Shown: positions 4,794-11,425 of the stretch, one piece after another | How the letters are laid out: each line of letters starts with the position of its first letter | Numbering within the stretch: the first letter of the stretch is position 1 | Source of the DNA: Patescibacteria group bacterium | GTDB taxonomy: Bacteria > Patescibacteriota > Patescibacteriia > SCPX01 | DNA length: 52,638 nt | Assembly (NCBI GenBank): GCA_004298615.1 | Contig: SCPX01000059.1 | Span: forward strand, 1 to 52,638 | Reading direction: 5' to 3' | Notes under the pieces: model-generated | What the model was told of the DNA's origin: nothing | What the model saw: only the letters and a program-made list of their open reading frames with translations | The model's database searches: none | Translations under genes and position numbers: made by a program

Positions 4794-6701
4794 ATGATTG
4801 CCCAAGTAATTCCTTTCATTCGCCTGCCGCGGACAATGGAGGCGTTTGATTATGTAATCCCAAAGAACTTGGAAGTCGGCTTGAGCGCCGGCTCTATTGT
4901 TTCTGTTCCGTTTAGAAAAAGGAATATTCTGGGATTTACCGCCGGGATTAAGAATACGAGCTATGTACCGGCGAATAAATTGCGCGCGATAAATAAAGTT
5001 ATCGTTGAGAAATCTTTGACTGAAGAGCAAATTGATCTTTTTTATTGGATGGCGGAAAATTACGCTACCGCCCGATCAATAATCATTAAAATGTTTTTTC
5101 CCTTCACTTCCAAATCATTTTTTAATCGTTTGGCAAACGAAAATAATAAGATACGGGATGCAAGATACAAGATTCAAGCCGCAAAACATCCTTGGCTCAA
5201 AAATCAATCGCTTTTAATTCAATATGACGATCGGGAAACCGTTTTGAAAGAATACGAAAAAATAGCAGCTGAATTCGCTAAAAGCAAAAAACAGCTGCTT
5301 ATTCTTTTCCCGCGATTGGCGCTTTTGCGCCGATTTTACGATGATTTGCCGGACAAAATCAAAAAATACGCTGAAATATATCAGTCAACCGGAATCAAAC
5401 AAAGCGCTTTGCAAAACGCTTTTTGGCGGATAAAAAACAATGAAGCGAAAATAATTTTGGGGACCAGGCCCGCCCTTTTCGCTCCGTTTGCCAATCTCTC
5501 CGCCATAATCATTGATCATGAGGAATCGCCTGACCACCGGCAAGAAGAGCCTAATCCGCGCTATCATCCGATTGACGCGGCGGAATTTTTGCAAAAGCGA
5601 GATAAGAAAATAAAAATTTTATATATTTCCCCGCTTCCCTCAATTGAGAGATTTTCCGCTACTCTTAACAAAAAAATAAAATTTATAAGCGGCGATAATT
5701 TCAGTCAGCCCGAAGATCGGATAAAAATTCTTGATACTCGGCATCCCGAATCTTGGCGAACGACTTATCCATTTCACTTTGAGATGGAAGCCGCGATAAA
5801 AGACAAGCTGGAAAATGCAAAGTCGGTATTTATTTTAGCCGGCCGCCGCGGAGAATCAGCAATGCTCGTTTGCGCGGATTGCGGCTGGTCGCCTGTCTGC
5901 CCAAATTGCGCCATTCCTTTGAGCATTGTCAATGAGCGAAAAATGGACGAGGCGCTTGTTTGTTTCCGGTGCGGTCTCAAGCAGTCCGGCACGCCATTTT
6001 GTCCGTCTTGCCAAGGCACTCGCCTGAAGTATCGAGGCGCCGGAATAAAAAAAATATACGATGCAGCAATCAAATTATTTCCCGATGCGCAAATTCGGCA
6101 GATAGCAAAGGAACCGCAGACTAATTTAAAAAAGCCCGATAGTCATCCGGAAATCATCATTGGCACGCCGTACGCCATAGATTATGTTGATTATTCCAAT
6201 ATCGGACTGATCGGGTTAGTCTCTACGGATGGCGCGCTTTTTTCCTCGCAATTCCGATCCGCCGAACGATTCGGCCAGCTTTTATGCGATTTGATGTCAT
6301 TAGCTCCCAAAGCTGATTTACTTGTCCAGACTATGGCGCCGGAACATAAAGTTTTTGCCATTTGGCAAAGAAATCGCGAGGATTTTTTACGGCAAGAATT
6401 GGAATCGCGTAAGTCGGCGAATTATCCTCCGTTTAGCGAGGTTTTAAAACTCATAATTCAAAATAAGAAATACGAAGCGGCGGAAAGCGCTGCCAGCGCT
6501 TGGATTGAAAAAAATAATGATTTGGCCGGCGAATCGAATATTGAAATTTTAGGTCCGATTCGTCCGGCCAATCCGCTGATACGCGGCCGTTTCCGGACCA
6601 ACATAGTTTTACGAGCTAATGAAAATGGCGCGTTTACAAAAATTATAAAACTGATTCCCAACGATTGGATCATTGACAAAAACCCTGAAAATCTATTATA
6701 A
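4794..6701 (+). CDS. priA: Primosomal protein N' (PriA) with degenerate helicase motifs
   Basis: N-terminal FDY..P...G.IV.VPF 3'-DNA-binding domain, four CxxC pairs, YPPF and ILGP C-terminal motifs, priA-def-fmt synteny. Start moved to ATG 4794. Confidence 0.9.
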   Translation: MIAQVIPFIRLPRTMEAFDYVIPKNLEVGLSAGSIVSVPFRKRNILGFTAGIKNTSYVPANKLRAINKVIVEKSLTEEQIDLFYWMAENYATARSIIIKMFFPFTSKSFFNRLANENNKIRDARYKIQAAKHPWLKNQSLLIQYDDRETVLKEYEKIAAEFAKSKKQLLILFPRLALLRRFYDDLPDKIKKYAEIYQSTGIKQSALQNAFWRIKNNEAKIILGTRPALFAPFANLSAIIIDHEESPDHRQEEPNPRYHPIDAAEFLQKRDKKIKILYISPLPSIERFSATLNKKIKFISGDNFSQPEDRIKILDTRHPESWRTTYPFHFEMEAAIKDKLENAKSVFILAGRRGESAMLVCADCGWSPVCPNCAIPLSIVNERKMDEALVCFRCGLKQSGTPFCPSCQGTRLKYRGAGIKKIYDAAIKLFPDAQIRQIAKEPQTNLKKPDSHPEIIIGTPYAIDYVDYSNIGLIGLVSTDGALFSSQFRSAERFGQLLCDLMSLAPKADLLVQTMAPEHKVFAIWQRNREDFLRQELESRKSANYPPFSEVLKLIIQNKKYEAAESAASAWIEKNNDLAGESNIEILGPIRPANPLIRGRFRTNIVLRANENGAFTKIIKLIPNDWIIDKNPENLL

Positions 6702-6726
6702 TAATCACTTTTAGGCCCAAGGCTTA

Positions 6727-10369: not shown

Positions 10370-10726
10370 ATGGGCTATCAAGATCAAGGCGCCGGGCGCC
10401 AAATGTTTGATGTTTCATCTTTGGGAATCCAATGCGCGAGCTGCGGAACCAAAATCAATGAACTTCCGTTTGAACCCAAAAGCGATCGTCCCGTTTATTG
10501 CCGCGATTGTAATCGATCGCGCAATGCGGACAGACCGCAGCGCAGCAACTTCCGACAAAATCAAAATTTTGGAGGACCCAGGCAAACCTTTGATGTTTCT
10601 TCGTTAGGATTGAAGTGCGCTAATTGCCAGACCGGCATTACCGAACTTCCGTTTGAACCGAAAACCGATCAACCGGTTTACTGTCGCGAATGCAACCGCG
10701 AAAGACGGCAGAATTTCCGCCGCTAA
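10370..10726 (+). CDS. Tandem CxxC-x17-CxxC zinc-ribbon domain protein
   Basis: Two near-identical units FDVSSLG..CxxC...LPFEPK.D.PVYCRxC, separated by an R/N/Q/G-rich linker. Confidence 0.9.
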   Translation: MGYQDQGAGRQMFDVSSLGIQCASCGTKINELPFEPKSDRPVYCRDCNRSRNADRPQRSNFRQNQNFGGPRQTFDVSSLGLKCANCQTGITELPFEPKTDQPVYCRECNRERRQNFRR

Positions 10727-10751
10727 TTTTATTCAATTTTTTTGAGTAAAT

Positions 10752-10785
10752 AAAAACACCCCCCGCCAAAGGCGGGGGGTGTTTT
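10752..10785. terminator. Bidirectional intrinsic terminator
   Basis: AAAACACCCCCCGCC-AAA-GGCGGGGGGTGTTTT perfect hairpin with A/T tails. Confidence 0.9.
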
Positions 10786-10789
10786 GAAT

Positions 10790-11316
10790 TGCGATACGGC
10801 GATATTCCGCTCTCCGCACGGAGCTCTTGTCGACGGATCATAAGACCCCATCAACGAGCGCTCTGCATCACGCAGATCTTCAAGAAAATCATTTCCGTCA
10901 GTCATTCCCAAAAGGCTCGATAGATTTGCGGGATCCTTCGCGAGCCTCGGCCGGCGAAGAGATGTCCCGAACATGCTGACGCGATTGTAAGGAATGCTTT
11001 AAGAAATTTATTTCTTATTCCGAGAGCGGAATACTGCCGCATCGCATTGGCGCTTTTCGGTCACGAGTGGCGAACGATTGATGACAGCCGATGCCCGAAT
11101 ACGACTCGATGACTTCTGTCCGAAATAAACTTTGACGGATACAATCTGGGCGAATGAATCAGGCGGCGCTTTTTTTTCGGATGAATTATTTCCGGCGAGA
11201 AAAAAAATAATTTTGCAGGAATGATTCTTGACATATTGCCTCCATGGAGAAATAAAATAACCAACCCTATTTTGCCATCAATTAACAAAATTTTACGGTT
11301 GGTTTTTATTTCTTCT
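10790..11316 (-). ncRNA. Candidate large structured RNA of unknown family; core domain 10790-11046
   Basis: 25-bp long-range helix 11046-11022/10814-10790, whose mismatches read mostly as G-U on the minus strand. Several internal hairpins. Own promoter and an adjacent terminator, with only weak ORFs. Confidence 0.55.
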
Positions 11317-11322
11317 GATACA

Positions 11323-11352
11323 ATTATAGATCTTTCAAAATTGATCTGTCAA
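11323..11352 (-). promoter_or_regulatory. Strong sigma70 promoter pointing into the structured region
   Basis: TTGACA(11352-11347)-18-TATAAT(11328-11323). Confidence 0.78.
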
Positions 11353-11361
11353 TACCCCAAA

Positions 11362-11381
11362 AGTGGATAATGGGTGGATAA
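11362..11381 (-). promoter_or_regulatory. Two tandem DnaA-box-like motifs
   Basis: TTATCCACC and TTATCCACT on the minus strand, each 8/9 to TTATCCACA, 11 bp apart. Confidence 0.5.
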
Positions 11382-11425
11382 ATTGAGCATAACTCGTCGT
11401 ATTTCAAAGTTTTTGCCAACTACGG

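Follow-up and report, generated by a model that had tools for sequence, protein, structure and literature searches.

RNAIII of Staphylococcus aureus, with hld, and the enterobacterial SgrS, with SgrT, are dual-function RNAs, in which one transcript running from promoter to terminator holds a small open reading frame (ORF) together with a structured part that functions separately. Ultra-small bacteria of the candidate phyla radiation (CPR)/Parcubacteria type have shed many standard parts, the signal recognition particle (SRP) included, and their regulatory RNAs are little known. We analysed a stretch of 52,638 nucleotides from one such bacterium, of groundwater (contig SCPX01000059.1 of the Patescibacteria group bacterium assembly GCA_004298615.1; hereafter the window), whose minus strand carries at 11352-10752 a unit that appears to share the layout of RNAIII and SgrS, with a promoter, a 5' hairpin, an ORF of 57 amino acids (aa), a structured 3' domain and a terminator. 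A preliminary description of this DNA had offered two readings of the unit, a large non-coding RNA standing alone or a structured RNA co-transcribed with the 57-aa peptide; only the second is upheld here, by a conserved ORF and a covarying fold. We consider it probable, if only slightly so, that the unit produces a lineage-restricted, dual-function transcript with the RNA module as its core.

The comparison drew on five related loci, namely those of the 1.15-Mb genome that holds the window (G000), of a related genome (G001) and of three metagenome contigs (L042, L043 and L044). The 3' domain, about 257 nt long at 10790-11046 of the minus strand, was recognised by folding and covariation. Folded as 266 nt, it reaches -114.1 kcal/mol, compared with -82.1±5.0 kcal/mol for its dinucleotide shuffles (z -6.43; none of 200 as good), and similar departures were found for the L044 domain (z -6.48), for the L043 unit (z -8.0) and for the 571-nt unit (z -7.26; 0/100 shuffles as good). 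The sense strand folds to a lower minimum free energy than the antisense strand both in the window (-114.1 versus -98.2 kcal/mol) and in L044 (-123.0 versus -96.2 kcal/mol). An RNAalifold consensus computed from G000, G001, L043 and L044 describes the domain as a multi-branch junction of 86 pairs, in which 92.6% of the cells are standard pairs, falling to 39-48% when the partners are slid by 1-3 columns. Both sides have changed in 21 of these 86 pairs, above the 7.4±2.2 seen in shuffles (0/500 reach 21) and the 3-7 obtained on sliding, so that the covariation among homologues bears out an RNA fold.

The closing helix had already been drawn in the preliminary description as 25 bp, and its arms at 10790-10814 and 11022-11046 (25 nt, 207 nt apart) are indeed 88% Watson-Crick on the minus strand, the rest being G-U; it ends 4-5 nt before the terminator, where about 5 nt had been estimated, and extends in the consensus fold to 11046-11020 with 10816-10790. 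L044 has largely different letters in this helix and still forms about 24 pairs, 8 of the 25 being compensatory. Inside it, the consensus places a helix at 10995-10990 with 10909-10904, a hairpin at 10969-10950 with 10945-10929, where 5 pairs are compensatory, including a change from C-G to U-A that separates the two close genomes, and a 3' hairpin at 10866-10844 with 10839-10818, which carries many changes in L043 and keeps its pairing there. The five inner helices first proposed fared unevenly against the four homologues, which contradict two of them. The 3' hairpin GCUC-GUUGAUGG/CCGUCGAC-GAGC stands, with compensatory and compatible changes, and UCUGCG/UGCAGA is weak, with 3 pairs left in the consensus and the others lost. 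CGUCAG/CUGACG is broken in G001, L042 and L043; the nested AGGCUCG/CGAGCCU is incompatible with the hairpin CUUCGC-C-GGC...GCU-C-GCGAAG, which has compensatory support; and GGAAU.../...AUUCC is missing from the consensus, where AUUCCU pairs with a downstream GGGAAU that is invariant in 4/4 sequences.

A decayed protein gene had been named as another source of conservation, and the domain does not behave as one: it is not conserved at codon level, each of the six frames carries at least one stop in all five domain sequences, a 1-nt indel in G001 breaks its longest ORF, and the relatives differ by indels whose lengths are not divisible by three. Identity across the domain is 0.946 between G000 and G001, 0.879 between G000 and L043, and 0.875 between G001 and L043, whereas the four-fold degenerate sites of the adjacent helicase gene give 0.598, 0.612 and 0.580 for the same pairs, and range overall from 0.58 to 0.80 against 0.875-0.946 for the domain. 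Since G001 and L043, which have no ORF, conserve the domain above the level of four-fold sites, we argue that the RNA is retained in its own right. Judged by these comparisons, the domain is non-coding and behaves as an RNA whose fold is under selection.

The unit occurs in a long form with the ORF and a short form without it. In GTDB, the family and order of G000 include a single further genome, G001, in which the promoter and 5' hairpin (79% identity) directly abut the 3' domain (94%), the ORF-bearing middle piece of about 206 nt being missing. The C-terminal 299 aa of the upstream helicase, used to scan metagenomes, led to 80 loci, three of which carry the unit: L042, with a helicase 94% identical, has the long form, truncated where its contig stops; L043 (90%) has the short form; and L044 (63%), the most distant relative, has the long form. 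Contigs from sequencing run X3 add a long form about 97% identical, and those from run X10 a long form about 90% identical together with a short form in which 11045 abuts 11250, the letters at the junction being those of L043. The ORF-less forms, which arise from a 204-nt deletion (joint 11045/11250) and keep hairpin and domain, are thus those of G001, L043 and the X10 contig; the G001 junction is 6 nt shorter than that of L043, and one or two deletion events are possible. Because the most distant relative carries the ORF, the long form is taken as ancestral and the short form as the deletion, and because L043 and the independent X10 assembly have the joint in common, the short form persists in nature. 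The natural deletion separates the two functions, in that relatives without the protein have kept the RNA.

Beyond these relatives the unit was hardly encountered. A class-wide DNA search of 401 genomes gave long matches only in G000 and G001, and the pieces found at E <=0.1 in 190 other class genomes were no longer than about 60 nt and mostly terminator-like. A covariance model of the domain (R1) recovered 4 true loci in 81 sources and matched 2 of 151 class genomes and 1 of 151 sampled phylum genomes, and blastn of the whole unit (window 10750-11355) against phage and plasmid collections returned nothing. We read the unit as lineage-restricted and vertically inherited. Its confinement to one small lineage, with about eight sequences, limits its general importance.

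The preliminary description had seen no credible protein in the unit, a verdict contradicted by the ORF at 11061-11234 (minus strand), which is absent from the short forms and follows a Shine-Dalgarno sequence, GGAGG (11239-11243), placed 4 nt before its ATG. The ribosome-binding site is kept as GGAGG in L042 and as the purine-rich GGGAGGGA in L044. At the protein level, the ORF aligns without indels to that of L042 over all 57 residues, at 88% identity, and shows 47-48% identity to an ORF of 64 aa that occupies the equivalent position in L044. When profiles were run against 5.8 billion and 1.84 billion proteins, the only relatives to emerge were five protein clusters, P0001-P0004 and P0007, two further candidates (P0005 and P0006) being dropped as unrelated repeat proteins, and 18 columns are invariant across 7 small-protein sequences. 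P0001, a metagenome relative of 62 aa and 93% identity, extends 5 residues beyond the normal C terminus, an indication of an altered stop codon. On these grounds the ORF is a real and conserved small-protein gene, with predicted translation.

The product belongs to no known family. It is rich in lysine, arginine and histidine, has no hydrophobic span of transmembrane length and has no match in Pfam, NCBIfam or PHROGs, among PDB sequences or in the ESM Atlas. PADLOC, run on four of the small proteins, gave nothing for three of them and one chance-level line for P0003 (PDC-M30A, E 0.0094). The AlphaFold model of the 57-aa protein contains no secondary structure (predicted local distance difference test, pLDDT, 51.9). 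Within the class, the small-protein profile reached 9 of 401 genomes at E <=0.01, eight of these being partial matches of 16-20 bits that we treated as chance, and scans of genome contigs and of viral contigs with the profile gave 0 matches each.

Transcription of the unit is predicted to start near 11316, from a sigma-70-type promoter at 11323-11352 of the minus strand whose sequence, TTGACA-18-TATAAT as previously described, matches the consensus at 12/12 positions. The hexamers are unchanged among the four close relatives, with a spacer that varies; L044 has TTGACA-17-TATACT, and in the alignment the hexamers and the boxes upstream of them are kept in all five loci. Perfect consensus promoters number 22 in the 1.15-Mb genome, the unit's among them, where about 1 would be expected by chance according to a hand estimate from base composition. 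The upstream boxes are three head-to-tail 9-mer repeats, TTATGCTCA, TTATCCACC and TTATCCACT, at 11362-11392 (minus strand), spaced by 11 nt and lying 9 nt upstream of the -35 hexamer. They match the DnaA-box 9-mer consensus at 7/9, 8/9 and 8/9 positions, and all three are kept even in L044, despite the saturation of four-fold sites against that relative. The tandem-box pattern has 3 matches in the genome compared with a mean of 0.2 in 20 shuffles. These phased repeats resemble DnaA boxes and are likely to form a regulator binding site. A regulator other than DnaA is also possible, because a 12-nt string of the proximal box recurs in repeats upstream of mraZ. If the repeats do bind DnaA, a non-coding RNA would be linked to the replication cycle.

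Related arrangements were observed elsewhere in G000. Four AAAGTGG-type direct repeats, spaced by 10 nt, occupy C33:5540-5630, at and immediately downstream of a promoter that precedes mraZ-rsmH. This cluster looks like a candidate MraZ operator and, being the region upstream of mraZ, was rejected as an origin of replication. An origin at the locus of the unit is itself unlikely, given that dnaA lies with its own boxes on contig C40 and that the local GC-skew polarity is opposite to that expected of an origin. Only one other place in the genome combines two boxes, 9 nt and a promoter, namely C65:13613-14050 (plus strand), where two DnaA-box-like 9-mers are followed after 9 nt by TTGACA-17-TATACT in the same layout as at the unit. 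Two U-rich hairpins of the form AACCAACC...GGUUGGUU come next, with arms that could pair alternatively as in an attenuator, and then a gene for a secreted glycine-rich protein; the C65 promoter and the unit may have a regulator in common. Within the window, a further perfect promoter (TTGACA-17-TATAAT; 6673-6702, plus strand) precedes a short hairpin and ORFs of 167 and 318 aa, the first of which we tentatively take, on reading its translation, to be a peptide deformylase.

The transcript would begin with a long A/U-rich hairpin, AAAUAAAAACCAACC...GGUUGGUUAUUUUAUUU, at 11248-11313 (minus strand), which had been noticed before and reappears in the minimum-free-energy fold of the unit. It starts about 3 nt past the predicted transcription start and has a U-rich tract at its 3' flank. 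Its basal 15 bp (AAAUAAAAACCAACC with GGUUGGUUAUUUUAUUU) are invariant in 5/5 loci, the apex varying in sequence and length, and the genome contains just one exact copy of the motif. Similar hairpins combining GGUUGGUU with a U-rich tract are found on C65, and one of them (C65:19066-19145) lies directly 3' of a stop codon. The 5' hairpin possibly serves as a 5' stabiliser, as an attenuator and/or as terminator of the helicase gene. At the other end, the intrinsic terminator (10745-10785, minus strand), previously placed at 10785-10752, consists of a 15-bp stem (10785-10753; 10 G-C pairs) followed by a U run, and it is retained with stem and loop changes in G001, L043 and L044. A and U tracts flank the stem, from which we infer bidirectional use, and the terminator thus probably also ends the convergent zinc-ribbon gene.

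Searches for described RNA families returned nothing at this locus. The 4227 models of Rfam 15 gave no match in the whole window at gathering thresholds, and at E <=10 the window, L043 and L044 gave weak hits driven by terminators and hairpins, with no family consistently in common. The preliminary description had been unable to match by eye transfer-messenger RNA (tmRNA), RNase P, SRP, riboswitch or intron signatures; ARAGORN and the Rfam searches agree with it at the locus, and by Rfam the RNA is undescribed. A full-text literature search on structured RNAs of CPR/Patescibacteria found no description of such an RNA. ARAGORN reported 0 genes in the window, the genome's tmRNA lies on C43 (117 bits), and the sole genome match to RNase P RNA (RF00010) is on C53 (162 bits), with none at the locus. 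For 6S RNA (RF00013) there was no match in the genome, nor at the locus at E <=10, with a model that is insensitive, having detected only 5 of 14 control genomes.

The SRP RNA models (RF00169 and RF01854) had no match anywhere in the genome even at E <=10, and the protein components were missing as well. No Ffh M domain was found in G000, and tblastn with Escherichia coli Ffh gave no hit, where 6/6 control proteins did. FtsY was not found in G000. The Ffh M domain appears absent more widely, being found in 0 of 31 relatives, and a strong SRP54-type GTPase was seen neither in G000 nor in 4 single-contig class genomes, nor in any of 81 phylum genomes. The lack of SRP components in G000 agrees with the absence of SRP in Parcubacteria that is reported in a published study (PMC4508563).

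In all five loci the unit is flanked by a UvrD-like helicase gene and, where the flank lies on the contig, by a convergent double zinc-ribbon gene, in the order helicase, unit, zinc-ribbon gene and a 503-aa gene; G001, L043 and L044 have the zinc-ribbon gene after the unit, and the L042 contig ends inside the unit. The unit is single-copy in G000 and is therefore not a repeat element, and a mobile repeat or an element resembling miniature inverted-repeat transposable elements, with terminal inverted repeats, was rejected on the single genome copy and on flanking genes that are constant wherever the contigs include them. The convergent gene (10370-10726, plus strand) encodes a 118-aa protein with two treble-clef zinc fingers (PF23477, E 5.5e-23), visible in the window as an internal 183-nt repeat. 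In G001 and L043 this protein keeps 97-98% identity, against just 90-92% for the helicase, and its gene adjoins the helicase in only 3 of 81 loci searched. Because the whole neighbourhood is syntenic, the adjacency of unit and zinc-ribbon gene adds no weight to a functional link.

Taken together, these observations are consistent with a dual-function transcript that would be made as follows. The near-ideal sigma-70 promoter, lying below three phased DnaA-box-like repeats, would drive strong and regulated transcription from about 11316, and the long form would contain in turn the hairpin, the ribosome-binding site, the gene for a basic protein of 57-64 aa, a multi-helix domain of about 255-280 nt closed by a helix of 24-25 bp, and the terminator. 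The 3' domain would be the core, a folded RNA in its own right that is neither coding nor merely a 3' untranslated region (UTR), and would act as a stable and abundant protein-binding RNA, either scaffold or decoy, to which the small, basic and intrinsically unstructured protein would be a cis-encoded accessory partner. The hairpin and the terminator would protect the two transcript ends, and the 25-bp helix, long enough as a substrate, could be an RNase III processing stem. The unit offers a clean, testable case, with a strong-looking promoter, a large fold that compensatory changes have maintained and, as candidate partner, a small protein of a new family.

Several points weigh against this dual-function reading. 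Transcription start, 3' end and translation are all inferred from sequence. The covariation sample is thin, with five domain sequences, one of them incomplete at the edge of its contig; the sequences in which covariation was counted also supplied the structure; and since four of the five are close kin, most of the covariation rests on L044. Part of the conservation of the ORF-less domains could predate the loss of the ORF. The 5' hairpin looks like a terminator and, if efficient, would keep most transcripts from reaching the ORF and the domain. Finally, nothing points to a specific partner or target, and the model of the small protein (pLDDT 51.9) is uninformative.

Other explanations were weighed. 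The domain might belong to an undescribed class of structured RNA that acts as a ribonucleoprotein core or decoy without the ORF, with synthesis in these ultra-small symbiotic bacteria set by DnaA through the three phased boxes and coupled to replication, and the small protein as an optional partner; we hold this to be unlikely. It might instead do no more than act in cis within the 3' UTR of the small-protein mRNA, as a barrier to exonucleases, in the control of translation or as a processing stem, the ORF-less forms being recent relics that have yet to decay. The stop codon precedes the domain by 15 nt in the window and by 22 nt in L044, so that a terminating ribosome would touch the closing helix, and the terminator stands directly 3' of the domain, structured ends being what would suit a stabilised mRNA. 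Relics, however, are hard to reconcile with the ORF-less pair G001/L043, whose domains are 87.5% identical against 58% at the adjacent four-fold sites, with the many changes of the L043 3' hairpin, which still pairs, or with a short form that persists, its joint common to L043 and X10, and we regard a purely cis-acting role as quite improbable. Much the same doubt attaches to a trans-acting base-pairing regulator in the manner of RNAIII or SgrS, with the small ORF as a second, separable function. Known dual-function small RNAs do resemble the unit in having an ORF and a structured 3' part and in losing the ORF in relatives, and the stretches AUUCCUUWCAAUC and GAUYUUCUU are conserved out to L044; but the conserved parts lie mostly within helices, a 260-nt domain with a 25-bp stem would be unusual for a small RNA that pairs through a seed, and a pairing with the zinc-ribbon mRNA, the one candidate target considered (13/14 complementary bases in the window), is not conserved, the duplex energies being equalled by 63/200 shuffles in L043 and 192/200 in L044.

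We give very little credence to a module of toxin-antitoxin type, in which the small basic protein would be harmful and the folded RNA would restrain it in cis. A small ORF in a heavily structured, stable transcript, lost in some lineages, is what such a module would look like, yet an antitoxin left without its toxin should decay and this domain is conserved; moreover, the unit is single-copy, syntenic and not mobile, the protein is basic rather than hydrophobic, and PADLOC left three of the four small proteins without a family and gave only the chance-level line for P0003 (E 0.0094). It is likewise highly improbable that the locus makes no functional RNA and is a decayed protein gene or, at the DNA level, an origin-like cluster of DnaA boxes with an AT-rich region and inverted repeats. 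The DnaA-box-like repeats do adjoin an AT-rich palindromic region, and inverted repeats would appear to covary in DNA as well. Against this, stops in all frames and indels outside multiples of three speak against a gene, G-U pairs and folding energies favour one strand, promoter hexamers, ribosome-binding site and terminator are conserved, and dnaA has boxes of its own and is located on a different contig, the local GC-skew polarity being opposite to that expected of an origin.

The dual-function reading, with the RNA module as core, can finally be set beside described RNAs. With the OLE, GOLLD, ROOL and raiA motif RNAs of Rfam, the unit has in common that they are large, ornate and free-standing, with their own promoter and terminator, and that they were recognised by conserved structure while their biochemical role is open; it differs in its link to an ORF, in a far narrower distribution and in the absence of any match to their models in the window or its homologues even at E <=10. 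In 6S RNA, an abundant RNA with a housekeeping role, the 5' and 3' ends likewise meet in a long closing helix, but the molecule is a rod opened by a central bubble, in contrast to the multi-branch junction of the present domain; the slot of 6S is formally open in G000, which gave no 6S match. The mRNAs of hok-like type I toxins also place a small ORF in a compact, structured and stable transcript with long-range pairing. Here, in contrast, the peptide is basic and not a membrane peptide, the helix closes the 3' domain only, the RNA is retained where the ORF is gone, and no antisense partner was seen, although an antisense RNA was not searched for. The nearest likeness in layout is to RNAIII and SgrS, with which the unit has no sequence or covariance-model similarity and no conserved pairing seed or target that was found. 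Like the unit, RNAIII spans several hundred nucleotides and has long-range helices that close its domains, and SgrS has likewise lost its ORF in some species while retaining the RNA part. What sets the unit apart from both is its compact junction of about 260 nt, closed by a 25-bp helix, and its host, an ultra-small Parcubacteria-like bacterium.

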